Of a DNA stretch of 64,000 bases, positions 3,217 to 64,000 are shown piece by piece. The translations under genes and the position numbers were made by a program. Every line of letters begins with the position of its first letter. Position 1 is the stretch's first letter. Below the pieces are notes generated by a model. It had not been told where the DNA came from. It worked only from the letters and a program-made list of their open reading frames with translations, and ran no database searches. Source of the DNA: Candidatus Bathyarchaeota archaeon (GTDB lineage: Archaea > Thermoproteota > Bathyarchaeia > Bathyarchaeales > Bathycorpusculaceae); NCBI GenBank assembly GCA_963715865.1, contig OY970280.1, forward strand, positions 1,632,001 through 1,696,000. The letters are read 5' to 3'.

Positions 3217-3336
3217 AAATTAAATTTCAACCGTACCTTTGAAAGAGGACTATGTGATTAACAGGTTACCTTGGTTTTGAGGGATAATTCTTAATTACCG
3301 CGTCCTCTAAAGTGTCTGGCTTGAGGGAAAAATAAA

Positions 3337-39582: not shown

Positions 39583-41051
39583 GCTTTGGGCGATAACGGT
39601 AGCTCTTTTTGGAATATTTGTTCACCTTTAAAATCCTCATTCTCCAATTTGAGTTCTGTCTCATAAAGTTCTTTGATTACGTCATCAAAAGAAGAAATAT
39701 CTTTGATAATTCCTCTTTTTGATATTTTTATTTCCTCTGAGGTACAGCCTGTTTCTCCCTCTTTCAACCAGTAAATAGTTGCGCTTGCCTTAATTTGAGG
39801 TGGCGCTTTGCCGTAAGCTTGACCAAACATATGACCAACCGCACGTAGCATAATGTCGCTGTGAGTAGTAATCAGGACATTAACTTTATTAGATGCTATA
39901 TCGCCAATCACATTGGCCATTTTAATTTGGGCACCAGGATGTAAATGGGATTCTGGTTCTTCAATGAGCAAATAGTCTCCATGCTTTACGAATTCTTTGA
40001 CAATGAAATAAATTGGTGTTAGTTCTTTAATCATTGAAGCCGCATGGATTAAATCGGTCTCACCAGTCCTCTTACCCGAAGAGAACTTATAAACCAGTCT
40101 GGATTTTAGCTGACCTTTAACTTTCCTAAATTGTATTTCTCCTCTAAACATTTGTTTAAAAGATTCGGAGACAATTTTGTTCAATGGACCTTTATGATTT
40201 TTCAATTGAAGCATAACTGAATAAAATTGAGCTGCCATACCTGGCATAGGCGGCATCGATAGCCCTCTAACGGGAGCTACGGGCGATAATGAAACAAGAC
40301 CTTGCACTACCGTTTCATAGCTCTCAATTAACCCACCTCTTCCCGCCGGGATATAGTATGGTTTTCCATGCCAGCATTTCCTTGTTTCATTGGAAATAAG
40401 GAGGCTCGATATTTCCCTATATAATTTAGCGAGATGGACATTCTTTCGTTTCCTGACGGTTCTTAGGGTCTCAAAAATTTTGGATTCTGCAAGGATTTCC
40501 GAGTAAGGTTTCCATCTGAGCTCATCTACTTTAGCAATCGATGTCGCGTTTCCTTTTCTTGTTAATTCCACTGAAACTTCTAGAAGCTCGTTGATATCCC
40601 ACCTAATTTTTGAGAAATTGTGGTTGATATTTACAAGTTTGCTTACATCAACACCAAAACTTCTTTCTAAAGAAGGCTGAAATATTTTGGTAATTCGGTT
40701 AGATAAGCTCTTCAAAAAAATATCTGTTAAATCTTTTATTATTGAAGAATTATCTTTGTTATCAACTGTTATTTTTTTTGCTAAATCCCTTAATTGCTCC
40801 CTTGATTGAAGATTCGTATAAAATAGATAATCTTCATCTTCTAATTCCACATTTAACTCTACAGCCCAAGAAGGTAGCGTTGGTTCAATTGCCTGTTTAG
40901 TGCAATCAATAATAGAGTAGTAAAGCTGGGCTAAATAGGATTTGCCCAAGTTGTTTTTCCCTATCAGAACAGTAAGATTCCGAAAATCAACATCAACTTG
41001 TTGTAAAGGACCAAAGTTTTTGACCCTGAGTCGCATAAGGTACCCTATCAA
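39579..41051 (-). CDS. ABC-type AAA ATPase (AAA_15/AAA_21-like)
   Basis: Walker A GKNNLGKS, Walker B LLIEEPESHLHP, H-loop LITTHS. Confidence 0.9.
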   Translation of the reverse strand: MIGYLMRLRVKNFGPLQQVDVDFRNLTVLIGKNNLGKSYLAQLYYSIIDCTKQAIEPTLPSWAVELNVELEDEDYLFYTNLQSREQLRDLAKKITVDNKDNSSIIKDLTDIFLKSLSNRITKIFQPSLERSFGVDVSKLVNINHNFSKIRWDINELLEVSVELTRKGNATSIAKVDELRWKPYSEILAESKIFETLRTVRKRKNVHLAKLYREISSLLISNETRKCWHGKPYYIPAGRGGLIESYETVVQGLVSLSPVAPVRGLSMPPMPGMAAQFYSVMLQLKNHKGPLNKIVSESFKQMFRGEIQFRKVKGQLKSRLVYKFSSGKRTGETDLIHAASMIKELTPIYFIVKEFVKHGDYLLIEEPESHLHPGAQIKMANVIGDIASNKVNVLITTHSDIMLRAVGHMFGQAYGKAPPQIKASATIYWLKEGETGCTSEEIKISKRGIIKDISSFDDVIKELYETELKLENEDFKGEQIFQKELPLSPKA

Positions 41052-46468: not shown

Positions 46469-47480
46469 GTTTTGCCGCTATGGCGTTTGCCATGTCGCTG
46501 GTTGATGCTGAACCGCCTAAATCTGCCGTTCTCACCTTGCCTTCGTTTAGCACGCTTATCACTGCTTTTTCGATTTTAGCTGCGCCTGCTTTTTCGCCAA
46601 GGTAATCCAGCATCATTGAGCCTGCCATAATGGTGGCTATGGGATTAACCCTGTTCATACCCGTGTATTTGGGCGCTGAACCGTGGACAGGCTCAAACAT
46701 GCCGTATGTTTCGCCGATGTTTGCTCCTGCCGCTAAGCCTAAACTTCCCGTAACCTGCGCCGCCTCATCCGAAAGTATGTCGCCGAAAAGGTTAGTTGTA
46801 ACAATCACATCGTAGGCTTCGGGCTTTTTAATTAGTTGCATGGTTGCAGCATCAATGTGCAAGTCATCAACGGTCACGTCAGGATACTTTTGCTGGGCTT
46901 CTTTAACGGCGTCTTTGAAGATGCCATCGGTTATTCTTAGAATGTTGCCTTTGTGCACGTAGGTTAAGTGTTTTCTGCGCTGAGAAGCAAGCTTAAACGC
47001 GAAATTGGCTATTTTCAATGAAGCTTCCCTTGTGATTATTCTTAGGGCTATGCCGACGCCTGGAGCAAGGAGAGATTCTGCGCCCGAGTATAAGCCTTCT
47101 GTATTCTCGCGGACAACGACTAAGTCTATGTTTGGTTTTAAGGCTTCAACGCTTGGAAAGCTTCGGCATGGACGCACGTTTGCATAGAGATTGAAAATTT
47201 TGCGGAGTGTCACGGCTACGCTTACTGGTGCACCTGGCTCTTCAGGCGTAGTCATTGGTCCTTTCAGGCAAGCGCTGGTTTGCTTTATCAGCTCTAGTGT
47301 TTCTTTGGGCAGGTTGGTGCCGTATTGGGCTATGCAGTGGTATCCTGCTTCGCCGTAAAGAAAGTTAAGTTTGAAATGTGATTTTTCTTGGATAGCTTGG
47401 AGGACTTTTACGGTTGCTTCTGTTACTTCTGGTCCGATGCCGTCGCCTTTAAGGACGGCTATGTTGTAAGTTTTAGTCAT
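46455..47480 (-). CDS. Isocitrate/isopropylmalate dehydrogenase family protein (LeuB/AksF-like)
   Basis: GDGIGPEV, NLYANVRP, RENTEGLY, HKGNI, EPVHGSAP. Confidence 0.93.
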   Translation of the reverse strand: MTKTYNIAVLKGDGIGPEVTEATVKVLQAIQEKSHFKLNFLYGEAGYHCIAQYGTNLPKETLELIKQTSACLKGPMTTPEEPGAPVSVAVTLRKIFNLYANVRPCRSFPSVEALKPNIDLVVVRENTEGLYSGAESLLAPGVGIALRIITREASLKIANFAFKLASQRRKHLTYVHKGNILRITDGIFKDAVKEAQQKYPDVTVDDLHIDAATMQLIKKPEAYDVIVTTNLFGDILSDEAAQVTGSLGLAAGANIGETYGMFEPVHGSAPKYTGMNRVNPIATIMAGSMMLDYLGEKAGAAKIEKAVISVLNEGKVRTADLGGSASTSDMANAIAAKLKAA

Positions 47481-47567
47481 TTTGGTTGCCTTCTTGTTTC
47501 TGGTTTTGTAAATAGTGTTTTTGCTTATCAGCATTCCTGTTGACTTTTTCCTAAAAATGAAGTTTCA

Positions 47568-48038
47568 TTATGCTTTCGGCTTAGCAGTGTATTTTTCGCA
47601 GTATTCTTCGGCCGTTGGTAAAACTGCTTTTACGCGGTCAAAACGCTTCTGCCCGTTAATTTTCTCTTCAAGCATGATAAAGTCTTTTGGCTTGCTGAAC
47701 CGTTCAACTTTGTCGTCCTCGCGTTTCCGCTCGATTTTCATGCAGTCATCAACCATGCAGCTTAACACGCAAGCGCCGCAGTAAACGCACAAGTCCTCGG
47801 TGATTCCTACTTCGCCAGATTTCCAGTATAAAGCGTTGGTTGGGCAAACTTTGACGCATAACTTGCATTCCACACCAAGGCACGTGTGCTTGTTTATTTT
47901 GATACTTCCTTCCTTGAAAAGTTCTTTTACGCCTGTTGGCTCCAAAAGTTCTTGTCTGCGCTTCTTTTTTGCCTTCTCACCATTATCGTCTGATAACAAG
48001 CCGAATATGTCGACGGTAGAAGCGCTTTTCGCTGGCAT
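47568..48038 (-). CDS. 2x[4Fe-4S] ferredoxin-like protein
   Basis: CLGVECKLCVKVCP and CVYCGACVLSC. Confidence 0.85.
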   Translation of the reverse strand: MPAKSASTVDIFGLLSDDNGEKAKKKRRQELLEPTGVKELFKEGSIKINKHTCLGVECKLCVKVCPTNALYWKSGEVGITEDLCVYCGACVLSCMVDDCMKIERKREDDKVERFSKPKDFIMLEEKINGQKRFDRVKAVLPTAEEYCEKYTAKPKA

Positions 48039-48078
48039 TTGGAACCACAACTGAACTAGGTTTATTCAAAAATAGGTT

Positions 48079-49436
48079 TTATGAATTATAATTACTTATC
48101 CCTATAGTTTGGGACTTATTATCCATATTTTTGAAGCTTCCGAAGCGTTTAGGCTTCCTGTAGAAATGCATCGTAATTCCGTTGAATGTAGCTTCATCAT
48201 ATTTTGTCCAGCCAGCCTTTCCTAAAGCACGAATCTCTTCAACTGTTGTTACAACGGTTTCCTCATAATCTTCCTCTTTGAACTCGATAGTATGCACATA
48301 TTTCTGCGTGCTCTTCCACGACTTATGCCTCAGCAATCTTGCGATAACAACAGCATTCCCATTCGAATAGTACGCTATCATAGAGCCGCCCCAATGACGG
48401 AACGATTTAAAACTGATCTGTAGCAATGCAGGATTCTGGAATTTTGCGGCAGCCTTTACGACGAAGCGCTGCAAGGCATACATAAGCAGTCCGATAGGTC
48501 ATTGGAAAAATCCGTTTGTTTTCCCTAGGCAAAGCATTCAACATGCAGGTCAAACGCATCGACAACTCGTATTTACCAGGGTAATGGAACTTCACTGGAT
48601 GATTAATACTGAACACATTATCCTTGAGGTCAATCCATTCAGCATCAAGAATCTCTGACGGATCAGCAAAAGTCTCTTTAAGGCACAGCAGAAAAGTAGC
48701 CATACGCTTACTCGCAGCACTAATAAGCAAATCAAGGTCTTTCTCATCAGGCACAATGATAGTAGCTTCCCTCTGACGATACAGCGGACGCTGCCAAACA
48801 ATCCCCTCCATCTGACAAAACGCATCATAAGCACACACCGCCAGCATTTTCATACTGTCACTCCAAGGCTCACCATTCTTCTTTTTCTGCTTAGCAATTA
48901 CCATCTTCACATTTTCAGAGTCCAACAGGTCAGCGCCATCACCGACAAGATGCGTCAGAATATCAGGGTACGTTATATCTTCATCAAAACCATTACGCTC
49001 CAAGTACGCCATGAATTTTGTAATCAAGCCACGCACAGCTTCAGGTAACAGGTCCAGATGCTTCAGTTTTCTTCTTGTCTCCCGCAACAGTCTTTAATTC
49101 TGCTGCAGAGGTCAAATTTTTCGCTCCCAAAGCGCATATTTGGCGTTTAGAAGCTAAGGCACTGGACGTATTTAATGACCTTTCAGAACTTTCTTGTAAC
49201 GGTGGTGACCCTTTAAGGGTCGGTCTCTCGCTAAAACGGAATCCGCAATCCCTGCAAAGCCAACGCTGAACACTAGATTTATCACTCCTATAACGCAGGC
49301 CATCACGATAAACCTTCGTCACCTTAGGACTGCAACTGGGGCATAGGGGGCTGGCGCCATCACTAGCCAACTTGCCCAAACCAACACTGCCAAATACACG
49401 CTCTTGAGCAAGACCAACCATTCCCTCCCCAGCCAT
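48079..49436 (-). pseudogene. int: Tyrosine integrase with N-terminal Zn ribbon, split by two frameshifts
   Basis: CPSC...WLCRDCG; core in 48407-49087; catalytic FRHW...LLRHKSWKSTQKY in 48079-48483. Confidence 0.88.
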
Positions 49437-49437
49437 C

Positions 49438-49605
49438 TTAACCCTCCGTAAATACGCGACCGTTCTCTTCAGCCAAATCCATCAATTCTTTGCGTTTAGC
49501 AGCTTCCTTAAGGCGTCTATCACATGGTCCACAATAATTAACAAACCGAGAAACGACGTCACCGCATTCTCGGCAGTGATGATGCTCAGGGACGCCTTCA
49601 GCCAA
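49438..49605 (-). CDS. 55-aa zinc-finger protein (not in ORF track), candidate recombination directionality factor
   Basis: MAEGVPEHHHCRECG...NYCGPCDRRLKEAAKRKE; overlaps RAMP stop, ends 1 nt before integrase start. Confidence 0.7.
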   Translation of the reverse strand: MAEGVPEHHHCRECGDVVSRFVNYCGPCDRRLKEAAKRKELMDLAEENGRVFTEG

Positions 49606-50248
49606 CAGTTTCACCTAACTCGCCTTTTGGACCTACAGAAGAATCCACGGTGACGGCGGCGCCTTCAGCGGCAGCTACTTCTTGACCATCATAGGTGAAG
49701 CTGACAACTTCGAAAGTTCCAAACGAGCCCTTATGCTGAGGCCTATAATCCAGCAAACCCATCCGGACACCCGCATCTTCCAAAATTTCTTTCAGCGTAG
49801 CCTCGATGCCTTCAGGCAGCCACTTAACATTATAGACAAGCCTAAACTTTGCACTCCATTGCAATAGTTTCGCTCTGCCTTTAAGAACCCGCTGCGACTG
49901 AATCACAACCGCCCGCTCATCAACCACGTACTGATCCGTACCCAAAGGAATCTTCTCAGGCTCCACACGCATCGTACCAGCAAGCAAACTCGAAAGCGAA
50001 ACCCTATGAACCCTGTACTGCTTAGCCGTATTGATAAGCATGCTCTGCACGCATTCCTGAGGAATGTAAAGCTGGTTTTTGCCGTTGATCACTGCCATGT
50101 AAGCGCTGTTCTTTGCATCGTTCTCTGTACTATAGTTCTGCGTCTTCATTTTACTTTTACTTTTCAAACTTTCCGGATTCAACCGGTTCATTAGCAAGGG
50201 CGTTAAGCCCTTAATTTCAACATCTATTTTTTTAAAGTTTTGACTCAT
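49598..50248 (-). CDS. Stand-alone Cas7/RAMP-like protein
   Basis: N-terminal strand IKGLTPLLMN, LYIPQECVQSML (YIP-SxKG-like), C-terminal Gly-rich loop GVRMGLLDYRPQHKGSFGTFEV. Confidence 0.75.
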   Translation of the reverse strand: MSQNFKKIDVEIKGLTPLLMNRLNPESLKSKSKMKTQNYSTENDAKNSAYMAVINGKNQLYIPQECVQSMLINTAKQYRVHRVSLSSLLAGTMRVEPEKIPLGTDQYVVDERAVVIQSQRVLKGRAKLLQWSAKFRLVYNVKWLPEGIEATLKEILEDAGVRMGLLDYRPQHKGSFGTFEVVSFTYDGQEVAAAEGAAVTVDSSVGPKGELGETVG

Positions 50249-51288
50249 TTTTGTAACCTCACGTTACCATACCTGAGAGCACTGTAGCTAACGGCGCCCC
50301 GCCTTCCCTCACTAAACCAAAATAGCGGCTTACCATGCCTCACAATACATCGCATCACCAAGCCAGGCATCACTGAACTCAACCTAACTGGACACCGCAA
50401 AACATGACCTAACCGCGATGATACCAAGGAATACCACGCATTACGCGACAGGACAGTACCAAGCCAAACTTGACCCCGCCTTAATAACGCCAAAGAACAC
50501 TTCGCCTTGCTGTACCTCACCACTGCTAACCACAATGAAAGCAAAGATTGCAGCAACCGTGCCAAACCGCAACTCACAAAACCCCGCTTGACATTGCCAA
50601 ACCTCAATAAAACCATGCCAAGCCTTGCATAACCGTACTTCACAGGACCAAACTTCGCCACGCCGTAGAGTGCCTCGCGACTCCAAGCCACGCAACGCCG
50701 TAATAACGCCAAACCATGCAAAACCATACCGTGCAGTACACCAACCCGCTCCACGATACCAAACAGGGCCTCTCCAAACCACGATAACACTTTACCACAC
50801 AAAACCAAGCCCCGCACCACAGATCCCCACGCAACGCAACAGGACCTCGCTAAGCCACAATAGCACCTAACCGTAGAGAACAAAGCACCACTTGACCCAA
50901 CAGAACCGGACTCCACTCCGCTACACCATAATAAAAGCTTGGCTTGCCTTGCTTCACCCAACCGGACCGTTCCCTGCCATAATGAAAGCTTAGAGAAACT
51001 ATCCTCGCAAAGCCGTACCTTACGATACCTAACCGGACAGGACAGAATAGTGCCATGCAATACTAAACCTCGCAACGCCTCAATAATAGCAAACCTAGCA
51101 AACCTTACTTTACTCAACCTAGCAGTACAGGGCCTCACAAGACCTAGAAACACAAGACCAGACCTAAGAATACACTGCCGGGCACCACTACACACCACAG
51201 GACCATACCTGACATCAATAGCGCCACACCTTACCTTAGAGGACCGGGCAACACCGCATCTTACCCCACGACACTTGACCCTAAACAT
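50245..51288 (-). other. Stop-free 347-codon ORF spanning the whole array
   Basis: ATG at 51288 overlaps ParB-like stop; TGA overlaps RAMP ATG (ATGA); G/R/V/L/C-rich low-complexity product. Confidence 0.55.
50256..51282 (-). ncRNA. Pentameric NN-GGY repeat array, putative multi-guide RNA precursor
   Basis: ~185-190 in-phase 5-mers (plus strand RCC-nn, e.g. gccgt acctt acgat accta accgg acagg), 12 AT-rich separators, directly upstream of RAMP gene. Confidence 0.8.
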
Positions 51289-52033
51289 GAAAACGCAACC
51301 TCTCAAAATCCAAATGCGCCCGATTAACCAACTCTTTAATGACAGGATCATCCAGCGGAAAACGCCCCGACTCCGCCAGACTACAAAACAGCACCAAAGC
51401 GTTCTTCAGCTCCACAAGCTCACGGCCACTCAAACCAGGCTGAACCTTCCCATTCTTGGAATCCACATGAAACCGCTTGCCGCATGGCGCCGTCAAAGTC
51501 ACAATAGGCGCAGCAGACTCACGGTAAATCTCAGCAGCCGGAACATGCACAAGCGCCACGATATCTTTCACGTCAAATTTGAACTTTTTAAGCCGAGCAA
51601 TGTTATCCTTAAGCTCCACGTCGCTGAAACCCTTGCCATGGCCACTATTAAGCCTCACCGCCTCAGCAAACAACTCAGCCTCACTAGAAAACGGCAACTC
51701 AGAACATTCCGCATACTCAACCTTGCGAAGCTTCCGAGAACTAAACCGATGAACACCATCAACAAGAATCTTCTGACCCTTGAAAACGCCAACCTTCAAA
51801 GTTGGAAAAACACAACCCGCATCCAAAGCCCTGGCATAATTTTCAACAACCCTCTGATCAATCTCCTTACGCGGATAAAGACTCCAATCAAAAACCAGAT
51901 CAGCAAGCTTCTCAATACGAACTGGCGCCCTATCCCAATCCTTAAACGCAAAACCAGCAGCTGGCTTAACCTCAACGCTCTTTTGCGGAGCAGGCGGCAT
52001 ATAAACAACTTTACCAGCAACAGGAGACTTCAA
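51281..52033 (-). CDS. ParB/Srx-like domain protein
   Basis: LYPR, ILVDGVHR, AVRLNSGHG motifs. Confidence 0.8.
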   Translation of the reverse strand: MKSPVAGKVVYMPPAPQKSVEVKPAAGFAFKDWDRAPVRIEKLADLVFDWSLYPRKEIDQRVVENYARALDAGCVFPTLKVGVFKGQKILVDGVHRFSSRKLRKVEYAECSELPFSSEAELFAEAVRLNSGHGKGFSDVELKDNIARLKKFKFDVKDIVALVHVPAAEIYRESAAPIVTLTAPCGKRFHVDSKNGKVQPGLSGRELVELKNALVLFCSLAESGRFPLDDPVIKELVNRAHLDFERLRFHV

Positions 52034-52242
52034 CTAGACGCCTCCAGCTTTGGCTTTTTCAACGGTATAAAAACAACCGGGTGCTTATCCAACCGACTAA
52101 AAATACACCTGTAACCCTCAGCTTCAAGGGCAGTCTTCCAAGCAGCATCGAACTCTGGCTTCTGAATAACTAGGCACTCTCCATACGGCGTCACATCTTT
52201 AGGCGGACCAAAACGCGACTTAAGCTCATCAACCGAAACCAT
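52030..52242 (-). CDS. Viral hypothetical protein
   Basis: 70 aa, GGAGG RBS, coupled overlaps. Confidence 0.7.
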   Translation of the reverse strand: MVSVDELKSRFGPPKDVTPYGECLVIQKPEFDAAWKTALEAEGYRCIFSRLDKHPVVFIPLKKPKLEASS

Positions 52243-52422
52243 CTAAGCCGGAACCTCCAATGAGCCAAAAAATAAATCATGCCTCTTTTTTTTGAGAAGT
52301 TTAACTGTGTTCCTTAATGCTTTGTTGTCTTTGTGAAGCTGTGATATCAAGTTGCAGTTATCTTTGATGCTACTATTGATAATTGCCAAGTCTTTGCTGA
52401 TTTGCTGCAATTCCTCAGTCAA
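52243..52422 (-). CDS. 59-aa coiled-coil viral protein (not in ORF track)
   Basis: MTEELQQISKDLAIINSSIKD...; TTGA overlap with upstream stop; GGAGG RBS. Confidence 0.6.
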   Translation of the reverse strand: MTEELQQISKDLAIINSSIKDNCNLISQLHKDNKALRNTVKLLKKKRHDLFFGSLEVPA

Positions 52423-52781
52423 ACAGAAACCTCCAAAGGTTTTTTCGCAAATAAGACTTCATTCGGCATGTAGAGGCCAGCCGTTGCAGCAACAACCTTA
52501 GGCACCCCATCCTCATAATAGGAACTGCACGCGCTTTCGTTTACGCGGCGATCCCACCAACGCTTCTCATGAACCCTGTAAGGCCAACGCCTACAATCAC
52601 GCAGCACAGCAATCCTGCTGCAAACCTCCAAGTAAATCTGCCTTAAACTAACCGGCTGCGAAGGCATACCCATCTTGCTCAGGATATCGCTTTTCTGCCT
52701 GTGCAAACTAAAGATCACTTCACGAATCAACTGCCTGAGAATCCGCAAGCTCCCGGCTTTCAGCAGGCCTACCCTGAGCAC
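52419..52781 (-). CDS. Viral hypothetical protein (possible wHTH)
   Basis: 120-aa ORF in operon; start uncertain. Confidence 0.55.
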   Translation of the reverse strand: MLRVGLLKAGSLRILRQLIREVIFSLHRQKSDILSKMGMPSQPVSLRQIYLEVCSRIAVLRDCRRWPYRVHEKRWWDRRVNESACSSYYEDGVPKVVAATAGLYMPNEVLFAKKPLEVSV

Positions 52782-52811
52782 GCCAACCAGCCGCCTTATA
52801 GGTTTGCTCGC

Positions 52812-53042
52812 TCATTTCTCAGGTCCCTCTATGATTTTGTCTAGTTTCTTCTGAGCGTAAGCTTCAATCCTGACAGTAACATTATGCCCTAACGGGTACT
52901 CCTGGTACAGTGCGGAACTCTCGCTCTTAATAGACAACTTCATTTTCGGGTCACTGCATTCCAGCGTAACCTTGAACACTGGCAATTCAGCGGCGTTCTG
53001 GCTTTTCGTATGACTGCGTACAATCATGTCATATTCAGTCAA
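52812..53042 (-). CDS. Viral hypothetical protein
   Basis: 76 aa, overlapping neighbours. Confidence 0.65.
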   Translation of the reverse strand: MTEYDMIVRSHTKSQNAAELPVFKVTLECSDPKMKLSIKSESSALYQEYPLGHNVTVRIEAYAQKKLDKIIEGPEK

Positions 53043-53895
53043 GCTTCTTCACCTCTGTTTTTCTCGGTTTATTTTGTAAGCGATAGAACTCTCTGATTTT
53101 TTCAAAGATTACATTACGCAACTTGGCATCGACAGCATCGCGCTCAGGCTTCCACTTGGCATCGACAGCATCGAGCTCAGCGTTCCACTTGGCATAGACA
53201 GCATCGCGCTCAGGCTTCCACTTGGCATCGACAGCATCGCGCTCAGGCTTCCACTTGGCATCGACAGCATCGCGCTCAGGCTTCCACTTGGCATAGACAG
53301 CATCGCGCTCAGCGTTCCACTTGGCATAGACAGCATCGCGCTCAGGCTTCCACTTGGCATCGACAGCATCGAGCTCAGCGTTCCACTTGGCATAGACAGC
53401 ATCGCGCTCAGCGTTCCACTTGGCATAGACAGCATCGCGCTCAGGCTTCCACTTGGCATAGACAGCATCGAGCTCAGCGTTCCACTTGGCATAGACAGCA
53501 TCGAGCTCAGGCTTCCACTTGGCATCGACAGCATCGAGCTCAGCGTTCCACTTGGCATAGACAGCATCGAGTTCAGCGTAATATCTCAACAAAAGCTCTT
53601 TTGAAATGCCGTTAGGATCTTGATTCTTTAGCAACCGCACAGATCGACAAACACATTTCTTGTTCTCATCACTCCAAGCCTCAATTCCATAAGCCTCAGC
53701 GAAAAACACTTGACAATCAGAGTTAAGCCAGTCCCGTGGGTCCATCGTTAAATGAAAACCCCGACTGCACATCGACAAATTGCCTTTCACAATATATTTC
53801 TTGCCAAGCTTCCAGGTCTGATGACCACCGTTGTAGCTCTGCATGTTCCGCAGGACTTTGAAAAGAATCACAGGTTTTTCTTTTTTATCAGTCAT
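53035..53895 (-). CDS. Viral protein with globular N-terminus and 11-aa tandem repeats
   Basis: GNLSMCSRGFH...KCVCRSVRL N-domain; E(L/R)DAV(Y/D)AKW(NA/KP) x13.7. Confidence 0.85.
   Translation of the reverse strand: MTDKKEKPVILFKVLRNMQSYNGGHQTWKLGKKYIVKGNLSMCSRGFHLTMDPRDWLNSDCQVFFAEAYGIEAWSDENKKCVCRSVRLLKNQDPNGISKELLLRYYAELDAVYAKWNAELDAVDAKWKPELDAVYAKWNAELDAVYAKWKPERDAVYAKWNAERDAVYAKWNAELDAVDAKWKPERDAVYAKWNAERDAVYAKWKPERDAVDAKWKPERDAVDAKWKPERDAVYAKWNAELDAVDAKWKPERDAVDAKLRNVIFEKIREFYRLQNKPRKTEVKKLD
53122..53574 (-). repeat. 33-bp coding tandem repeat, 13 full plus 1 partial copy
   Basis: 453 bp = 13x33 + 24. Confidence 0.95.
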
Positions 53896-54131
53896 GCTGG
53901 CGGCGCCTCCAAATCAGGAACCCGTTTATCAATCAAACTCTTAGTCGCAGCACTGGCCTGCATTTCAACTTCACGACGCCACGCCTCCAACTCCTGCAGC
54001 CGACCCTCATGATCAGCCCTGCCACGCTTCAACTCAGCAACTTCACCGCACAAACGCTCAAAACAACCGCCCAAACCTTCCAGCGCACGCTTAAACGCAA
54101 CAGCAACATGTTTCGCAAATTTTTCGCTCAA
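53892..54131 (-). CDS. Viral coiled-coil hypothetical protein
   Basis: 79 aa, coupled overlaps. Confidence 0.65.
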   Translation of the reverse strand: MSEKFAKHVAVAFKRALEGLGGCFERLCGEVAELKRGRADHEGRLQELEAWRREVEMQASAATKSLIDKRVPDLEAPPA

Positions 54132-54268
54132 GAAACAGCCTCCTTTTTGTCCTTGCTGAAGGAATCCACAAGCTTAGGCTTACATTTGCCGAACGGAACA
54201 TCCACGCACCGGACACCTGGATTATCAGCGCAAAAGAGCAGTTGCGGATCCAACTTTTCACAAACCAC
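54128..54268 (-). CDS. 46-aa Cys-containing viral protein (not in ORF track)
   Basis: GGAGG then GTG; VCEKLDPQLLFCADNPGVRCVDVPFGKC; TTGA overlap. Confidence 0.55.
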   Translation of the reverse strand: MVCEKLDPQLLFCADNPGVRCVDVPFGKCKPKLVDSFSKDKKEAVS

Positions 54269-54588
54269 GCCTACAGCCTCCTAACAGGCCTACGCTTACG
54301 CCAAAGCCAAGGAGGGCTACCGTTCTTGTTTAGGAAGCAATTTGAGGGGGAGAGAAGAGCAATAAAACCAGCTCGAGGCTTAAAACTAAACTTCCCAAAA
54401 GCAAATCCTTCAAAAAGCCTAATCCCCAAGGTATTAGCCCTCCTGCTTGCAACCTTGCAAAAGTAGATGCTCTATTACCTCAGGAATCGTACGATTCGTA
54501 TTTTCCGCGATTTTTTCAAGTTTACCATAAATAGCATCTTTTACGGTTATGCTTCTATAGCCTTCTCGTGGCATTCACCTATCTCCTT

Positions 54589-54678
54589 GAATGTACTCTA
54601 TTGTACCGTACCATATATAAGATTTGGGTACATTCTGGTACATGAAATAACGTTTATATAGAATGTACGGTACATTCT
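54589..54678. promoter_or_regulatory. Divergent promoter/operator region
   Basis: Perfect inverted repeat AGAATGTAC-G-GTACATTCT (54660-54678), further half-sites at 54589 and 54628, TATA-like boxes on both strands. Confidence 0.7.
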
Positions 54679-54692
54679 GTTTTGACACAATC

Positions 54693-54878
54693 ATGCCAAG
54701 AATAGGATACAAAAGTATAACCGTACCTAACGATGTTTACGAGTTTTTCAAAAATGAATGGTTAAAAAACAAAGATCAACTACGCCGAAGAGGAATCCGT
54801 AGTTTCTCTGGGTATGTTACTTCTCGTCTTAATCAATTAATGGAAGAAGAAGAGAAGAAACGTAATGAAGAAACGTAA
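54693..54878 (+). CDS. RHH/antitoxin-like DNA-binding protein, candidate repressor
   Basis: GYKSITVPNDVY...GIRSFSGYV; divergent from early operon. Confidence 0.75.
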   Translation: MPRIGYKSITVPNDVYEFFKNEWLKNKDQLRRRGIRSFSGYVTSRLNQLMEEEEKKRNEET

Positions 54879-54958
54879 TCACTAACACTCACATTAAGGT
54901 CTTCAGCTCTCTGTGCTAATTTACGGTAAACTTCTCTTGAAACAAATAATTTCTTCAA
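54833..54958 (-). CDS. 41-aa RHH (CopG-like) protein (not in ORF track)
   Basis: MKKLFVSREVYRKLAQRAEDLNVSVSDYVSSL: strand-helix-helix pattern. Confidence 0.55.
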   Translation of the reverse strand: MKKLFVSREVYRKLAQRAEDLNVSVSDYVSSLRFFSSSSIN

Positions 54959-55140
54959 ACAGACTCTTAGCGCAAAAATACATCAAAACCCTATATAAAA
55001 CCAATCCCAAAACAACCATCCAGCACAGTGGAGGGTGCACTGAAAGTAAAATTACCACGTACATTGTAGGTTTCGGAATCCAATCCAAGCCACTTTAAAA
55101 GCACCTTCGGAATCAATTCCAAACTACGTATATTCAAGCC

Positions 55141-55998
55141 CTAAGATGTACGTGGTAAACTTGGCGGAAAAAGCAACGTTTGAATTTGCTTACCGTACTT
55201 CACAGCCATGGCTGTCTTGATTTCTTGATATTCAGCAGGATCCAAGGAAGTTCCGCAGCACGGACAAATCGGCGTACCCTCCGGAATAGTTTCGGGTACC
55301 ATAATTTTTTTAGGTTTAGGCTCTGTAGACGATGTAACCGATGTAGACGATGTGGGAATTCCCTCTTTTTTGCTGTCGGATATCTCACTACTGGAAGTAA
55401 CCCTATGCACTTCCTCTTCTCGCGCTGTCTCATACTTTGATTTTAGCGCCTCCGAGATTTTTCCCGATGTCTCACTCTTAAGTTCTTGAGGCATGTACTT
55501 GTAAATTGTTTTTTTACTAATGCCTGTGACTTTAGCGATTTCTTCAGGCTTCAACCCGGCCTTAACAAGAAAAGTTACGCGCTGCGCAATCTCTTCAGGC
55601 GAAACTTTGCGCCTGTTAAAATTAGCCGCCAACATAGCTAACTGAAGCTTAACAGGCGTATCAATTTGAGGCCTCACTTCAGTATGCCACTTCGGGTTTT
55701 CCCCCAGCCTATGGAAACCATCAATAACATTCCCATGCGCATCCATCAACACCGGATACAGTTCGCCAAGCCCTTCACCTGATGTGGCAAGACTGTAAGG
55801 CGCTTCCTCATCCGCTTTCGGCTCTTCTACCTCTTCTACCGCCTCTACCTTCTCTACTTCCTCTACCTCAGTTTCTTCAAGTGCCTGTTGAGTCAGGGGC
55901 GCAGGAACAGGCCCATAATGACTATGCGACCAATGAAGTCTATACTCAAGCCCTGAATCAAAAACCCTATGGCATTTGGGACAAGCAACCTTACCCAT
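55141..55998 (-). CDS. C2H2 Zn finger + ParB-like + HTH protein
   Basis: CPKC...HWSHSH; VIDGFHRL; KPEEIAKVTGISKKTIYKY; C-terminal CPCC. Confidence 0.8.
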   Translation of the reverse strand: MGKVACPKCHRVFDSGLEYRLHWSHSHYGPVPAPLTQQALEETEVEEVEKVEAVEEVEEPKADEEAPYSLATSGEGLGELYPVLMDAHGNVIDGFHRLGENPKWHTEVRPQIDTPVKLQLAMLAANFNRRKVSPEEIAQRVTFLVKAGLKPEEIAKVTGISKKTIYKYMPQELKSETSGKISEALKSKYETAREEEVHRVTSSSEISDSKKEGIPTSSTSVTSSTEPKPKKIMVPETIPEGTPICPCCGTSLDPAEYQEIKTAMAVKYGKQIQTLLFPPSLPRTS

Positions 55999-56223
55999 CT
56001 ACAACGCCTCCGCAATTATCGCAAGAGCCTTAACGTTCCGGTCATAATGACCCTCAAAAGCTTCTGTCTTGCCCTGAAAGACCCGATTAAGCTTTTCGCG
56101 CAACGGATCATAAGGCGGCAGCCGAACCACATTCCGATCATTGATGTTGTAAAACTTCTTGCCATTCCAACTGAACTCCAATAGCCACGGCGCCACCTTG
56201 CTCTTACGCAAAAACATCTTCAT
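55999..56223 (-). CDS. Viral hypothetical protein
   Basis: 74 aa, abuts ParB-like gene. Confidence 0.6.
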   Translation of the reverse strand: MKMFLRKSKVAPWLLEFSWNGKKFYNINDRNVVRLPPYDPLREKLNRVFQGKTEAFEGHYDRNVKALAIIAEAL

Positions 56224-56345
56224 AGCCCAGCCTCCCCACTATACCTTACCCAAGAGCAACCAGAACATTTCCTTCCAGGACGCCTAGCTAAAGTCGGCGG
56301 ATTCTGCGGACAATAAGTAGCGGTGCAGATTGGCCGCTGCTTCAC
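56220..56345 (-). CDS. 41-aa Cys-rich viral protein (not in ORF track)
   Basis: ICTATYCP...KCSGC; GTGA and ATGA overlaps at both ends. Confidence 0.55.
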   Translation of the reverse strand: MKQRPICTATYCPQNPPTLARRPGRKCSGCSWVRYSGEAGL

Positions 56346-56500
56346 CATAAACCCAACCCCTTAACACCCTTCAAGCTTGCCAGAGTTTTTTCCGTTCGAT
56401 CTAAGACTGCGCTTCGGTTAACTGAATCAATCACAGAACCCTTGTAGATCTGTACCGTGTAAAAGTTTGCGCGGTAATCGATTTTTGCTTGAGTGTTCAT
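56342..56500 (-). CDS. 52-aa viral protein (not in ORF track)
   Basis: MNTQAKIDYRANFYTVQIYKG...; first gene after divergent promoter. Confidence 0.5.
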   Translation of the reverse strand: MNTQAKIDYRANFYTVQIYKGSVIDSVNRSAVLDRTEKTLASLKGVKGLGLW

Positions 56501-56516
56501 TTTGCTTATTCCTCAC

Positions 56517-56564
56517 GTAACTGTAATAGTCACAGTAAGATATAAACGTGACGGTGACAGTTAC
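56517..56564. promoter_or_regulatory. Second divergent promoter with inverted repeat around a TATA box
   Basis: gtaactgt-n4-gtcac ... gtgac-n4-acagttac flanking atataaa. Confidence 0.55.
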
Positions 56565-56602
56565 ATTTAAATATTAAGCAACACATGATACCTTGAGGAA
56601 AA

Positions 56603-56782
56603 ATGAGACAATACATACTAACACCGCAAGAGAGAGAAATCATCAAAAAATACCTAGAAACAGGCGAAAAGCATGTCTGGTTCAGAATGCTACTATCCAG
56701 GTGTCGCCACATGGAAATCGTGCAAGAAGACCTGCAGTTAATTGAGCAATTCCTCAAAAAAACAGAAGGCGGAAAACCGTGA
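56603..56782 (+). CDS. 59-aa helical putative DNA-binding protein (not in ORF track)
   Basis: MRQYILTPQEREIIKKYLETGEK...; GAGG RBS. Confidence 0.65.
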   Translation: MRQYILTPQEREIIKKYLETGEKHVWFRMLLSRCRHMEIVQEDLQLIEQFLKKTEGGKP

Positions 56783-56931
56783 CGTTAAAAACAATCAATG
56801 TTTATTTGCGAATAATCGCTTTTATGGCGTTCGATATGCTTATGTTCCCAGATTTAACGGTTAAATTGTTTTGGCGTGTACTTCACAATGATATTCCATA
56901 GAAAAAAAAGCAGGAAATAGGCGAATAAAAA

Positions 56932-57201
56932 ATGAGTGAAAAAGAAGGCCAACTAAAACAAAAAATAGACACATTAGATAAAACGTTGCATGAAAGTGTT
57001 AAGTTTAGCCCACCAGCAGCTGTAATAACAAATTTTGAAAAAGTACGCGTTAACTTGGAAGATCTGAAAAATAGTTTGGATGAGGCAAAAAAAGATGCTA
57101 TTAAATCCACATCTTATGACATCAACGCCGACATAATTATTTGGGTTGCAATTGTTGAAGCATGGGAAAAATGGTTCGAGAAATGGTTTGGCAAGTCCTA
57201 A
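56932..57201 (+). CDS. Viral hypothetical protein
   Basis: 89-aa ORF. Confidence 0.55.
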   Translation: MSEKEGQLKQKIDTLDKTLHESVKFSPPAAVITNFEKVRVNLEDLKNSLDEAKKDAIKSTSYDINADIIIWVAIVEAWEKWFEKWFGKS

Positions 57202-57289
57202 GATGTACGTAGTAAATAGCCTCCGCTGAAATCTTAATTTAAATGCCGAAAAAAAAGAGCAAAACGTGCTCTCCAAGCGAAAAAAAACA

Positions 57290-57694
57290 TTAACTCACTG
57301 TTGCTGTTGACTGCGGCGCCGTAGTCTGCTGCTGAGTCTCCTCAAGCTTTTGCACTGCACCTGCAACAGCATTTAACGCTGTTTGCTGCGGGTTGCTAAC
57401 GTCAACTGGGCCGACGGCTGCTGCAATGGGCGCAACAACTTCTCGGATGCTGTTAAGATACTTGCTTGCTACCGTGCCGACAAGAGTTGACGCGAAAGGC
57501 GAAACGTAAATGCTGCTAAGCGGAGTCCCAGAGACGCTGAATCCAAGCGCCATAGCAAAACTGATTGCGACAGTGCGCAGAAACTTGGTTTCGCTGAAGG
57601 CTTCACCGCTGAGTTTCCAAGCAATCAACGCGTAAACGATTGACGTTACGACTGCAGCGAGTAAGCTGTAATAAACTGAAATATCCATGTTCAT
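57290..57694 (-). CDS. Holin-like / small multi-TM viral membrane protein
   Basis: GGAGGTGA RBS; TM helices around GEAFSETKFLRT; downstream of tail genes. Confidence 0.5.
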   Translation of the reverse strand: MNMDISVYYSLLAAVVTSIVYALIAWKLSGEAFSETKFLRTVAISFAMALGFSVSGTPLSSIYVSPFASTLVGTVASKYLNSIREVVAPIAAAVGPVDVSNPQQTALNAVAGAVQKLEETQQQTTAPQSTATVS

Positions 57695-57798
57695 TCTCAC
57701 CTCCATTAAACAAGCAATTACCGTGACTAGGAAAAACCAAGACTATGGTACCACGTACATCCTAAGCCCTAATGTACGTAGTAAAAAAAAACTTTAGA

Positions 57799-58068
57799 TT
57801 ATTCCCTTTTTGTTTTTTCTTCCGCTTTAAAATTAGCTTTAGCCACTGGAAGCGGCACATCCTTGTTAGCTTCCTTCACCACTTGACCTTTCAACTTCTG
57901 AATTTCCTGATCTTTCTCAGCGAGCATGGCATTCGTCACTTGAATGTAAGCCCCGAACGATTTAGCCAAGTCACTGTACGGCTTAAGCGCTATACTATAG
58001 TTCGTGTTAAACTCCGCCAGGATAGACTGGATTTGCTTTTCATGTTGAGATTCTGGTTGCTTCATCAT
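57799..58068 (-). CDS. Viral coiled-coil hypothetical protein
   Basis: 89 aa. Confidence 0.6.
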   Translation of the reverse strand: MMKQPESQHEKQIQSILAEFNTNYSIALKPYSDLAKSFGAYIQVTNAMLAEKDQEIQKLKGQVVKEANKDVPLPVAKANFKAEEKTKRE

Positions 58069-58120
58069 CTAGTTAATCCCTCCTTTACTTTTCTTTAAAA
58101 CTTCAATTTGTAACCGCAAA

Positions 58121-61100
58121 TCATAGTGCGTATTCTATCCATGAATCTATCCATGAATAAGACGTATTTTCGCTCCAATTATTATGCAACGAATACGTCG
58201 ATCCATTCGGAACTATGGCTGTTATGCAAGAAGACATGTAATTGTAGAGGGAATTACAAATTCTACCAGCCTTAACCCCATCTACATAAAGCGTTGTCCA
58301 AATCGCGTATGATGAACCAGCGGGAGCAGTAATTATGGTTATAACTATAACTTTATCATAACCAGTATTATTGGTATAGTCAGTACCAAGGGCTCTTGAT
58401 GCTGTTACATCAAGCACGTAAGTTGATAGATGGCTCGAATTGTATGAATTATTATATCCAATAGCAGTTAAGTTTCCTGCAAGCGTCAAGTTTCCCGAAC
58501 TATCTAAACTCCACAACGTAGAGTTTAATAGAAGTTCTTGAGATGTAACCTTAAATGGATTGGTATCAACAGACGTTATATACGCCGAAGGAACCTCCGA
58601 CCAATGGTGCCCATCAAGCAAATCAGCGTTCAAATTGGGGCACATGGTTGTCGATATGACGCTTAACGGTGCGGTTCCAATCGCTATGTTGATGCCGACG
58701 GCGTTATCGGTTGAAAACGCTTTCGCCCATAAATTTTGCTCAACAATCAAACCGCCATCTGAAGGCGTTTGAACGCGCAAACTGTCCTTATTCGCTTGTG
58801 TCCCCGTTGTTGGACGGTAAAAAGCCACGTTCGTGTCTAAAAAGTTAAAGTCAGACTGAACCGTAATATAAGTGTGGTCTAAACCTAAAAGTTGATTGCA
58901 GAAAAGTTGGTCGCTGTCAACAAACTTGAGATAATGCCCTGAGCTGCCGAACCCAAATGTTTTGTCTGAACCGTCAGGAACCAAGTAGCGGATTCCGCTT
59001 GTGATGCCCACGGTGAAACTGGTTGTCGCGCCGTTGCCGTTGCCCCTGATCGTCAATGTGAGAGCGTCAAGGTCATTCAAGTACAGGTTCGCAGGTAACT
59101 CAGTGTCAGCGCGAAGCAGAAAAAGCGTATCGTAATCAGCGCTTAAAACATCAAAGTATTTTTCTGCCCACGCACCGCTTATGTAACACCACAAGCTTTT
59201 GCGGTCAGTGCGATAGAAATAGTCGTACGGGTTCATTCCCGACGTCGGGTTACTAGTTCCACTCGGGTAACTGCCAAGCGGATCACTCATGCCAATGATC
59301 GTGCCCGTTAAATCAAACAGGGGCGGGCAATACCTGCCCTGGAAACCCTCACCCATCAAGATTGCGCCGCCGCCCGTGTGCTTGTACGGGTCACTGCTTG
59401 TACCCAGAAAACCGAAAGTCTGAGTGTCTTTCTCTATGAATAAAGCTTGGTTAATGCAAAACATCGGATCAGAAAGCACAGTTGAATGGTCTAACGGGCT
59501 GATTACGGACGCAAAAATGTCAATATAGTTCCCTGAAGGATTAGCAACGTTAGTCGGAACACCATCAACAAGTACGTCGCCGTTATCCTTCAAAACCAAC
59601 AAGTTATCCAAAGTAAGCTGATTAATGATTTCAAGGTTAGCAAGCTGACCTGGAAAACCGCCTGCGCCGCCCCCACTGCTCCCTCCGCCGCTGCCCTGCG
59701 ATTGCTTCGCCAAAACACGCATCAAATAATCCATCATCACCGGCTCATCACTCAACAACAACTCGCTTGTCCAGTACACGTCAATAATCGAGTGCGTAAC
59801 TTCCAAAATGCGGAAATAAGCGTCAACGCCCTCATTCGCCAAAACCACGTGCTGCATGTAACCAGGAACAAAATCATAATTGCCAACACAGCTTACCTTC
59901 AACGTGACAACTTTGTCCTGAGTGTACGCAAGCTTCCCAGCAGCCGCGAGAGCGCAAGCCTCATCACTTGCCAACGTAGTGTCAGTGACAGGATCAGCCC
60001 AGCGAACACCATACTTAGCGAGACGCGCAGCATCAGTGTCCATGGCGGTGCCGACACAGGGCATACCACTAAAATACAAATCATCAAGCAAGAAGTAAAA
60101 TGTATCGTTGGAACTACCAGGCGTACCTTGAACGTAGAAGCATACGTCTGAAATATTATTCCAGTCTGGGCTTCCAACTTCAACCCATTTGCCGCTGGGG
60201 TTAGTTATAGCGTCATAAACTTGGTCTGGACCGACGGGAATAGTTGTTTCTTCTTTCCAAGTGTCATTAGGATTTGTTAATTCTACATAGAAATAGTTTG
60301 AAGCATCAGGCGCATACAAGCGGATTTGCTCATGCTGCATCGATGCTAACCCACCTATGTGATATTTCCAATAGAAATGCACATTTGTAGCGGCTGATTT
60401 ACCGACAAAAACTAAGGTTGAAGGTAAGGCGCGGTGAAATTGAATTGTTCGAATACCTGATATGCCAGCCGAATCTGCTTCAAGCGAGTCACTACCGATT
60501 TTTTTATCACTTGAATTCGCAATTACTTGAACACCTAAATCTAGTACCCAACCAGTGCCATATGTCCAATCATCACCTGTCGCAGGCACCATCTTCAACG
60601 GAACAGTCTTGTTAACGCCGCCTTCAACAACAACCTGCGTTGACGCGCCGTACACGATGTACGCGTTCCGCACACGCAGCGCGTCGTCCTCTTTAATATA
60701 AACTTGGAAAACGCCTGCCAAGTCAACCGTGCTGTTACGGCTGCCACGCGCAAACACCTGCAACACGCCAGGAGGAGAAACGTAACCGTCAAAACCAACT
60801 GCGCCCCCGCTTGTTTCCGCAGCAGGCAAAATAGCTTTAAGAACTTTATCAGGCGAAGCATCATCAAAAGTCTCACTGAAAAGCGACGCAATAGCATTTT
60901 CCACATCCACGCCTGCAGCGCTCAAATAATTACAGAGTGCAACGGCTTCCTGAATGATTGTTTTGCCGTTTTCAGCCACATAGTTTTTGGTAAGCGTAGC
61001 AGGCGGGGCTTGCGCTTCCTCGCCGTAATCCATACATTCCACAGGAATATAGAATTCCTGCGTATCCGCGTTGCCCGACGATGTGGGCTTAGTGATTTTG

Positions 61101-61753: not shown

Positions 61754-61845
61754 CGAATATTCACCTCAAACATAGACGTTCAGCATCCACTCCTCGAAAT
61801 AAACTTGATAAGCAACCGTTACCCATAACAAAATAGGCAGAAAAC

Positions 61846-62157: not shown

Positions 62158-62165
62158 ATCAGTAA

Positions 62166-63992: not shown

Positions 63993-64000
63993 TCTTTCAC

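Follow-up and report, generated by a model that had tools for sequence, protein, structure and literature searches.

The locus examined here raises the question of whether a lone RAMP gene and the 1.03-kb run of five-nucleotide (5-nt) units beside it form an RNA-guided system and, if they do, at what the guides are aimed. Both lie on the minus strand of a 64,000-nt stretch of DNA from a Candidatus Bathyarchaeota archaeon (GenBank assembly GCA_963715865.1, contig OY970280.1, positions 1,632,001 to 1,696,000), which we call the window and whose numbering is used throughout. A first-pass annotation of the sequence had suggested a likeness to systems of the Viral Interference Programmable Repeat (VIPR) kind, described in 2026 preprints (bioRxiv 10.64898/2026.04.26.720920 and 10.64898/2026.04.26.720927), and this likeness was borne out. 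In such systems a lone ancestral RAMP protein (Vipr) is combined with an accessory gene (vap) and with vrRNAs in which GGY and NN alternate; the NN dinucleotides pair with double-stranded DNA (dsDNA), every third target base being skipped, and the result is transcriptional silencing (10.64898/2026.04.26.720920). Their carriers are mostly phages, proviruses and archaeal viruses, and seven types have been defined (10.64898/2026.04.26.720920). Escherichia phage SUSP1 carries the characterized example, a type II system for which there is a structure of Vipr (PDB 36pp) and for which residues that read GGY or hold DNA have been identified, R138, D177, W178, R179, E71 and H17 among them (10.64898/2026.04.26.720927). 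Taken as a whole, the results presented below are very probably best explained by a VIPR system residing on a Bathyarchaeia provirus, in which the array would be both a set of guides and an open reading frame (ORF); its expression, processing and silencing activity are proposed by analogy with the published systems.

When the minus strand from 51282 to 50251 was compared with itself, identity was 0.43 at a lag of 5 and 0.33-0.39 at further multiples of 5 (0.33 by lag 40), against a level of about 0.25 at all other lags. As identity at lag 5 exceeded that at lags 10 and 15, the repeat unit is a pentamer rather than a 15-nt coding unit. Parsing the minus strand from 51300 to 50240 with phase tracking yielded 195 clean pentamers of about 205 units, and the percentages given here refer to those 195. 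Positions 1 and 2 were free; position 3 was G in 52% and T in 28%, position 4 was G in 87%, and position 5 was C or T in 96%, giving the consensus NN-K-G-Y, a related form of the YNNGG-type repeat, which is expected of VIPR loci in runs of at least 4 adjacent units. The first-pass annotation had described 185-190 in-phase NN-GGY units, exact GGY in 55-60% of those in the block it counted, and about 13 guides. Its 5-nt periodicity, its G-Y core (163 of 195) and its free NN held up, and its guide number was about right; its unit count was too low, exact GGY accounted for 85 of the 195 pentamers (44%), and the array did not keep a single phase. Instead, the register moved by +1 nt at 12-13 places, dividing the array into about 14 blocks (13-14) of 9-19 pentamers each. 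Nearly all of these shifts carried the sequence ..GGY-N-Y-Y-A-T / Y-NN-GG.., that is, a separator YYAT/Y (the slash marking the block boundary), which is a 6-nt unit adding one base. The same separator bounded the blocks in eight arrays, those of the window and of seven relatives.

The array started directly behind the upstream gene's stop codon (51281-51283) and ended at a Shine-Dalgarno-like GAGGT (50260-50256) located seven bases 5' of the vipr ATG (50248), so placed that GAGGT is at once the last in-phase unit of the last guide, g14, and the Shine-Dalgarno-like site of vipr. Chance or a simple repeat as the source of the pattern was ruled out by the periodicity, the composition by phase and the conservation in relatives. 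An Rfam scan of 48000-53000 gave no family at its gathering score and only two weak, chance-level matches, both outside the array, which ruled out a ribozyme-interspersed array or a known RNA family. A conserved terminal hairpin before vipr was considered and dropped; though several loci can pair GTAAC/GTTAC-like arms, RNAalifold gave no supported consensus, and the Shine-Dalgarno-like GAGGT is the better reading of the conserved element.

The gene at the end of the array encodes a protein (P0001) for which there was no Pfam family, and which matched phrog_4652 from end to end (E 4e-14). An AlphaFold2 (AF2) model had a pLDDT of 81 and a pTM of 0.76. With this model Foldseek gave 125 PDB matches at E<=1e-3, of which the 50 best listed were all Cas7-family chains; the top ones were type VII Cas7, Csm3, Cmr4 and Cascade Cas7, with E of about 1e-6, TM of about 0.5 and sequence identities of 8-16%. 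The protein is thus predicted to be a minimal RAMP with a Cas7-like fold, as had been proposed at first sight of its sequence. As a single sequence, its best PDB match was 36pp, 'SUSP1 Vipr protein' (E 0.022), and a profile of 28 relatives matched 36pp at E 3.4e-6 over residues 27-185 (159 residues). Through the profile alignment, SUSP1 Vipr residues E71, K82, K88, R138 and D177-W178-R179 map onto E65, K76, R82, R125 and D167-Y168-R169, every one of which is invariant or almost so in the clade. The GGY-reading positions E65, R125, D167, Y168 and R169 were invariant or at least 90% conserved in the clade, with Y or F replacing W, and the loop G-L-L-D-Y-R-P-Q-H-x-G-x-F-G was invariant or nearly so among the 28 relatives. 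These alignments indicate that the protein is homologous to the established Vipr proteins and is to be counted among them.

Homologs of vipr with 65-86% identity were abundant in metagenomes; the nearest genomic relatives were Bathyarchaeia metagenome-assembled genomes (MAGs), and thirteen relatives were on IMG/VR viral contigs. Linkage of the gene to such an array, which had been suggested as a check, was found in every case: all 15 vipr loci fetched from the genome and viral collections contained a 5-periodic stretch, which in most of them directly abutted the gene. In the close clade the arrays were 650-1100 nt long and lay directly upstream of vipr. The gene was present in just one of 41 related genomes, that of the window itself, which fits the expectation for a mobile element.

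The published pairing rule could be tried on the 2.35-Mb genome of the host (G000). Windows of ten consecutive NN were slid along each block and compared with both strands with 0, 1, 2 or 3 bases skipped between dinucleotides. Skipping one base gave one match of 20/20, four of 19/20 and six of 18/20. With skips of 0 and 2 the maximum was 17/20, shuffled guides at skip 1 reached 18 once, and skip 3 recovered only the array itself. The two top sites at skip 1 were in frame and in the sense direction, and the skipped base was the wobble position; the NN, read as NNx, matched protein-coding DNA in register with its codons, the wobble base being left out. The 1-nt-skip rule was in this way independently reproduced from genome sequence alone, and the gapped targets suggested in the first-pass annotation were borne out. 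A match of 18/20 between g13 and the host gene for topo VI subunit A was taken as chance, one shuffled control having also reached 18. We concluded that the locus is a well-supported VIPR system and so not a new kind of system.

To read the guides, each NN was taken as codon positions 1 and 2, and each guide was scanned against the host genome with 30 shuffles as control. In nine of the 14 guides this reading spelled the best-conserved motifs of five gene groups: motifs IV and X of the C5 methyltransferases, motifs I and IV of the beta-class N4/N6 methyltransferases, motif I and GxFFTPR of the HsdM/gamma-class enzymes, and motifs of PAPS-reductase-like proteins and of the large terminase (Table 1). 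The motif names follow established knowledge of the families, and they were checked against real genes where possible. The closest agreement was that of g07, which matched 25 of 28 bases (89%; shuffle maximum 22), its first ten dinucleotides perfectly (20/20), at host positions 558672-558713 (VFDPCCGSGGMF), in a gene for a 530-aa HsdM (N6_Mtase + HsdM_N) that is the first in an hsdM-hsdS-hsdR operon. For the beta-class motifs, g04 matched 19/20 at 1848388 (VDLVITSPPY) and 18/20 at 1504775 (VQLMVTSPPY), both in PF01555 genes, and the two best genome-wide matches of g08 (23/30 and 22/30) were likewise both in host PF01555 genes. The best genome-wide match of g09 was 26/36, DVVFLDTTIELPETVEYT, in the strongest of the host's three PF01507 matches; this gene also carries SGGKDST, which is spelled by guides of other relatives, and it was matched at 17/18 by the g09-equivalent guides of relatives L005, L007 and L009. 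For g05 the best match was 16/18 (89%) at 977074-977100 (LSTPWDKNH), in a Terminase_6N/6C gene, a borderline result as the shuffle maximum was also 16.

The host genome contained no C5 methyltransferase (PF00145), and for the two C5 guides we turned to Pfam-verified C5-methyltransferase loci of relatives. There g06 had its best match on ..GGPPCQGFS.. in all three such loci, and g01 had its best match on Q[IV]GNAVPP (QIGNAVPPLLA, QVGNAVPPLFA) in two of the three. For g12 the assignment to HsdM is presumed from the established GxFFTPR motif of that protein, and no match to g12 was found in the host genome. Neither g02 nor g03 had a significant match in the host genome; at the place corresponding to the g02/g03 region, the arrays of relatives carry [DE]PPY[CW]. 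Decoding g10, g11, g13 and g14 as antisense gave no recognized motif, and a scan of g13 against 301 Bathyarchaeia genomes, allowing up to 3 mismatches (<=3), gave 0 matches. The decoded motifs recurred in the arrays of all seven close relatives, with other flanks and in another order, and guides from these arrays reached 17/18 on the same host genes as those of the window.

Table 1. Features of the VIPR locus, with positions in the window; the motifs are those obtained by reading each NN as the first two positions of a codon
Feature	Position	Strand	Description
vipr	49598-50248	-	216-aa stand-alone RAMP (Cas7-like) protein, P0001
vrRNA array	50251-51282	-	~205 pentamers NN-K-G-Y, ~14 guide blocks, 'staggered'
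Stop-free frame across array	50245-51289	-	ATG 51289; TGA overlaps vipr ATG as ATGA
ParB/Srx-like gene	51281-52033	-	250 aa, candidate vipr-accessory protein (vap)
Integrase	48079-49087	-	two overlapping ORFs (226 aa, 134 aa); phrog_1/216 match; provirus end
YYAT/Y separators (starts)	51221, 51086, 50985, 50934, 50863, 50787, 50706, 50610, 50538, 50487, 50421, 50325	-	
g01	51223-51277	-	[HQ]VG[KN]AVPP.. (QVGNAVPP) = C5-methyltransferase motif X
g02	51216-51172	-	[DE][HQ][IM]PGVGP, helix-hairpin-helix-like
g03	51166-51102	-	..L[DE]PTY[CW], DPPY-type methyltransferase motif IV (beta-class N4/N6)
g04	50987-51081	-	[DE]V[DE][FL][IM][IM]TSPPY.. (IITSPPY) = N4/N6 (beta-class) methyltransferase motif IV
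g05	50936-50980	-	[IM][RS]TP[CW][DE][KN][KN][KN] (STPW..) = terminase large-subunit motif
g06	50865-50929	-	[IM]VGGPSCQGFST = C5-methyltransferase catalytic motif IV (PCQ)
g07	50789-50858	-	V[FL][DE]P[CW][CW]GSGG[FL][FL]V (DPCCGSGGFL) = HsdM/gamma-class N6-methyltransferase motif I
g08	50708-50782	-	V[FL][DE]P[FL][IM]GGGTT.. (VLDPFxGGGTT) = beta-class methyltransferase motif I (DPFxGxGTT)
g09	50612-50701	-	..[FL]V[DE]TTV[DE][FL]P[DE]TY (FVDTTVEFPETY) = PAPS-reductase-family motif (DTxxxFPET)
g10	50605-50556	-	no recognized motif
g11	50533-50489	-	no recognized motif
g12	50482-50423	-	[KN]G[HQ][FL][FL]TPR (GQFFTPR) = HsdM 'GxFFTPR' motif (presumed)
g13	50416-50327	-	no recognized motif
g14	50320-50256	-	no recognized motif; last unit GAGGT

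All of the assignable guides were coding-strand (sense) sequence, and would therefore pair with template-strand DNA and not with mRNA. This bears directly on the idea that the guides act on RNA, by binding or cleaving mRNA in the manner of type III CRISPR, and not on DNA. Such an action might be suspected from the nearest structural neighbours of Vipr, Csm3 and Cmr4, which are backbone subunits of RNA-targeting complexes, and from the ability of the VIPR filament to pair with single-stranded RNA in vitro (10.64898/2026.04.26.720927). As each assigned guide is identical and not complementary to the mRNA, as there is no nuclease or Cas10-like partner in the locus, and as published VIPR silences via dsDNA binding (10.64898/2026.04.26.720920), we consider action on RNA extremely improbable.

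The list of decoded motifs also bears on whose genes are attacked. One explanation is that the host, and not rival elements, is the main target; the system would then silence the hsdM-hsdS-hsdR operon and the N4/N6 methyltransferases of the host as an anti-restriction or host-takeover device. It is consistent with this that no guide matched better than g07, whose site is in the host's type I hsdM at the head of its operon, and that g04 and g08 had their best genome-wide matches in host PF01555 genes. It is difficult to reconcile with two guides, g01 and g06, that spell motifs of C5 methyltransferases in a host that has none, with guides that are closer to the family consensus than to the host alleles (GGFL in the guide versus GGMF in hsdM), and with the presence of the same guide families in relatives from other hosts and samples; moreover, a terminase guide suits virus-virus conflict, and most of the host matches were below 80%. 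We regard the host as an unlikely main target. We infer that the system most likely serves to silence, at the level of transcription and across whole families, the DNA-modification and packaging genes that rival mobile elements carry. This reading is favoured because the host offers no target for the C5 guides, because the guides are close to the family consensus, and because one guide spells a terminase motif. Given the 89% match to hsdM, the type I restriction-modification operon of the host stays in play and may be a further target.

Several features of the matched host genes were observed in passing. Two TATA-binding-protein (TBP) domains are encoded between hsdM and hsdS (G000 555000-562500) by an ORF of 187 aa (L017:2084-2647, minus strand). 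The guide-matched gene for the terminase large subunit (G000 976294-977685) adjoins a SocA/Panacea-domain gene, and the guide-matched PAPS-reductase-like gene (G000 1023152-1024696), about 46 kb from the terminase gene, has zinc-ribbon and 4Fe-4S motifs; these two genes may be part of further mobile elements, resident or decayed.

Guides appear to come and go as blocks. In an alignment (A4) of window positions 50246-51290 with positions 3113-4003 of relative L002, the arrays of the two viruses, whose Vipr proteins are 94% identical, differed by gains and losses of entire blocks. The 96-nt PAPS-reductase guide g09 was present in the window and cleanly absent in L002, the break falling at a TTATT separator; the alignment also showed a 15-nt indel within one guide. 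Guide turnover thus looks cassette-like in these sequences, though no acquisition machinery was evident.

The array has a second property, which concerns its reading as codons in its own right. The three sense-strand frames of the array contained 24, 0 and 20 stops. Across the eight arrays of the window and its seven close relatives, a single frame had 0-1 stops and the other frames 7-25. When the order of the pentamers was shuffled, the observed openness was reached by 0, 0, 0, 1, 0, 5, 0 and 18 of 5000 shuffles for each of the eight arrays, respectively. The choice of pyrimidine varied with the register: the Y preceding AA, AG or GA was T in 160 of 229 cases (70%) out of register, and was C in 67 of the 69 cases in which T would create an in-frame stop. 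Units of TA-G were nearly absent from the critical register (3 versus 59). The ATG of the open frame at 51289 overlaps the stop of the upstream gene by 8 nt, and an in-frame start 5 nt before the upstream stop, behind a Shine-Dalgarno-like GGTG or GAGG, was found in six of seven loci; from a farther upstream ATG at 51351 the frame would be 368 aa long. The end of the frame relative to the vipr ATG was +1 (the ATGA overlap), -5, -8 or -9 across the loci. In the distant VIPR loci L010-L016 there was no such stop-free frame, stops occurring in all frames. By these counts the array of the close clade is under clear selection to remain open in one frame bridging the accessory gene and vipr.

An open frame may be read as a protein gene. 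A functional repetitive product of the 1.1-kb frame (x-[VA]-[GRW]-x-G), selected alone or beside the RNA, would account for one frame staying free of stops in eight arrays against strong odds, for the conserved start and Shine-Dalgarno-like site overlapping the upstream stop, and for a frame that ends on the start of vipr. It would not account for a fundamental period of 5 nt and not 15, nor for NN positions that are fully explained by the target motifs. The frame that is open relative to vipr differed among relatives (frames 2, 0 and 1), blocks were gained, lost and reordered, and the encoded sequence was not conserved. Its translation belonged to no Pfam or PHROG family and gave a single-sequence AF2 pLDDT of 38, in itself weak evidence, and a recognizable protein as the product of the array frame was dropped as a candidate. 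We therefore regard a selected protein as very improbable. Because blocks turn over as cassettes, the frame relative to vipr differs, and there is no family or confident fold, selection would seem to be for uninterrupted translation and not for the protein.

The gene that the open frame would connect to vipr encodes a protein matching phrog_1033, 'ParB-like partition protein' (E 3e-8), with no Pfam match and no significant PDB sequence match by sequence or by profile. Its assignment as ParB/Srx-like is based on PHROG 1033 and on a D-G-x-H-R motif that was invariant among its relatives. Of the 15 related loci, 13 had this gene next to vipr, even some in which Vipr is just 28-40% identical. As vap of the present VIPR type, it is the leading candidate. 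The ParB/Srx domain could itself be a nuclease.

The first part of the following mechanism, on the filament, is modelled on that of SUSP1. One Vipr protomer per pentamer would polymerize along the guide, each clamping the constant K-G-Y bases and presenting its NN, and the resulting filament would form an R-loop triplex on dsDNA and block transcription without cleavage, no cleavage being proposed because no nuclease is evident. At the YYAT/Y separators, where G-G is missing and the register shifts, one filament would stop and another begin; these separators probably mark processing sites. The guide set would act as a family-level weapon against DNA-modification and packaging genes. Ribosomes may read through the array frame and so couple translation of vipr to that of the upstream gene, in a coupled chain of ORFs running from the ParB/Srx-like gene through the array to vipr; as the ribosome site GAGGT is the last pentamer of the last guide, loading of Vipr could feed back on vipr expression. 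We tentatively propose, without great confidence, that the array has a double role, its motif-level guides silencing families of modification genes (those of C5, N4/N6 and type I methyltransferases and of PAPS-reductase-type modifiers) in rivals or host whatever their synonymous codons, and its translated linker ORF setting the level of Vipr through the passage of ribosomes and the binding of Vipr along it.

Several points weigh against identification of the locus as a VIPR system with guides of this kind. The first of the three constant bases was G in only 52% of the units. At the level of sequence, the resemblance to SUSP1 Vipr is distant (E 0.02 with the single sequence, 3e-6 with the profile), and the H17 contact of SUSP1 Vipr falls outside the aligned region and was assigned no counterpart. 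Five of the 14 guides had no verified gene match, and four of these, g10, g11, g13 and g14, spelled no recognized motif. Full-length matches in the host were 71-77%, except for the 89% of hsdM and the borderline 89% of the short terminase guide, and so fell below the threshold of 80% used by the VIPR authors. Exact-pattern scans of IMG/VR with the core of g09 and the core of g06 gave 0 matches; exact matching was probably too strict for this purpose. Finally, the proposed translation of the array rests on sequence statistics only. Weighed together with the periodicity, the conserved GGY-reading residues, the skip-1 matches and the linkage in relatives, these points leave a VIPR system, as stated at the outset, the very probable explanation.

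The surroundings of the locus are those of a provirus. The operon runs on the minus strand from the ParB/Srx-like gene through the array to vipr, and is followed on that strand by a 58-aa zinc-ribbon ORF, a 131-aa ORF and then the integrase, the placement of which downstream of vipr was kept in relatives L002, L003 and L007. The split of the integrase into two ORFs was also common to these three relatives, and may represent a genuine two-ORF or frameshifted gene and not decay. Host genes start at about 48050, where genes for a ferredoxin, an isopropylmalate/isocitrate dehydrogenase and RPA lie beside the provirus edge, and deeper inside the insertion there were HK97-gp10-like and other phage-like ORFs. 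No convincing direct repeat that could represent att sites was found within 47400-64000, and the far end of the provirus is probably beyond the window. The 58-aa CxxC..CxxC ORF (49438-49614) had no counterpart in the relatives by tblastn and was for that reason dropped as a part of the system. The window was free of CRISPR-like interspaced repeats and the entire host genome lacked Cas1, in agreement with the first-pass annotation, which had reported neither CRISPR repeats nor cas1 and had called the locus an archaeal proviral instance. The proviral and archaeal context is supported by the adjacent integrase, by relatives on IMG/VR contigs, and by Bathyarchaeia MAGs as the nearest genomic relatives; the carrier is very probably an integrated head-tail-like virus of a Bathyarchaeia archaeon.

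Other repeats and one other gene in the window were recorded. At 53088-53615, within the ORF 53035-53895 (minus strand), there are 14 head-to-tail 33-nt units with 89-100% identity, equivalent to an 11-residue repeat; the product is a 286-aa proviral protein with a DUF7666 N-terminus and weak coiled-coil/tape-measure-like matches. The proviral ORF 62166-63134 (minus strand) contains a perfect 69-nt tandem duplication at 62298-62435, with a nearby 126-nt pair that is 71% identical. Six 15-nt repeats at 29136-29264 (GGCTGCAGGTTTCTT-like; minus strand) probably encode a short Lys/Ala/Pro-rich peptide repeat and are unrelated to the VIPR locus. An AAA_15/AAA_21 ATPase (AbiEii-like, OLD-family-type) is encoded at 39579-41051 (minus strand), about 7 kb beyond the provirus end, and is a possible host defence gene.

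VIPR has been characterized only in two bacterial type II systems, and the present locus carries it into the Bathyarchaeia, an archaeal lineage that is uncultivated and here sampled from peat and wetland. The sequencing runs listed for this sequence included no RNA run, only DNA runs of peat and wetland metagenomes in which its share is small. If the guides are read as catalytic motifs, wobble skipping would be used to reach entire enzyme families and not the gene of one rival, and the guide repertoire points to RNA-guided attack on epigenetic self-marking, either as anti-restriction or as a means of disarming the anti-restriction of rivals.

With the class 1 CRISPR proteins Cas7, Csm3, Cmr4 and type VII Cas7, the system shares an RRM/RAMP fold, a fixed number of guide nucleotides per subunit and a base-flipping thumb. 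It differs in its period, which is 5 nt with three bases sequestered here and 6 nt with one base flipped there, and in that the locus has no repeat-spacer array, Cas5, Cas6, large or small subunits, or adaptation genes. With SUSP1 VIPR the system shares the following: a lone minimal RAMP in which the G-loop D-[WY]-R and the thumb Arg are conserved; pentamer guides in which a triplet containing G-Y is constant and the NN is free, one base being skipped at the codon wobble; and a viral or proviral carrier, without cas genes or a CRISPR array, bearing a small operon with one accessory gene. The legend of figure S18 in the main VIPR preprint, the part of that source on which this comparison draws, describes 'staggered vrRNA arrays' in which adjacent vrRNAs of a continuous array are offset or overlapping by 1 nt, the end of each vrRNA serving also as the beginning of its neighbour (10.64898/2026.04.26.720920), and the +1 register shift at each separator in the present array fits that legend. 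In SUSP1 the guides are RNAs of about 100 nt with pseudoknot tails, whereas here the separate vrRNAs of about 100 nt with a structured 3' tail that distinguish type II were not found, and the guides abut in one uninterrupted 1-kb array upstream of vipr, joined by the 6-nt separators. The present array differs further from that of SUSP1 in the relaxation of its first constant base (G 52%, T 28%), in its ParB/Srx-like accessory gene, and in being an open reading frame that bridges two genes. In the portion of the main preprint's text available for comparison (10.64898/2026.04.26.720920) there was no mention of ORF, translation, stop codons or methyltransferase targets; the bridging-ORF array, the relaxed first constant base and the YYAT/Y separators are not described in that portion, nor are a ParB/Srx partner and guides spelling motifs of DNA-modification enzymes. 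The targets of published VIPR systems are satellite-phage genes or lysis-lysogeny regulators; those of the Bathyarchaeia provirus would be, in contrast, the catalytic motifs of DNA modification.

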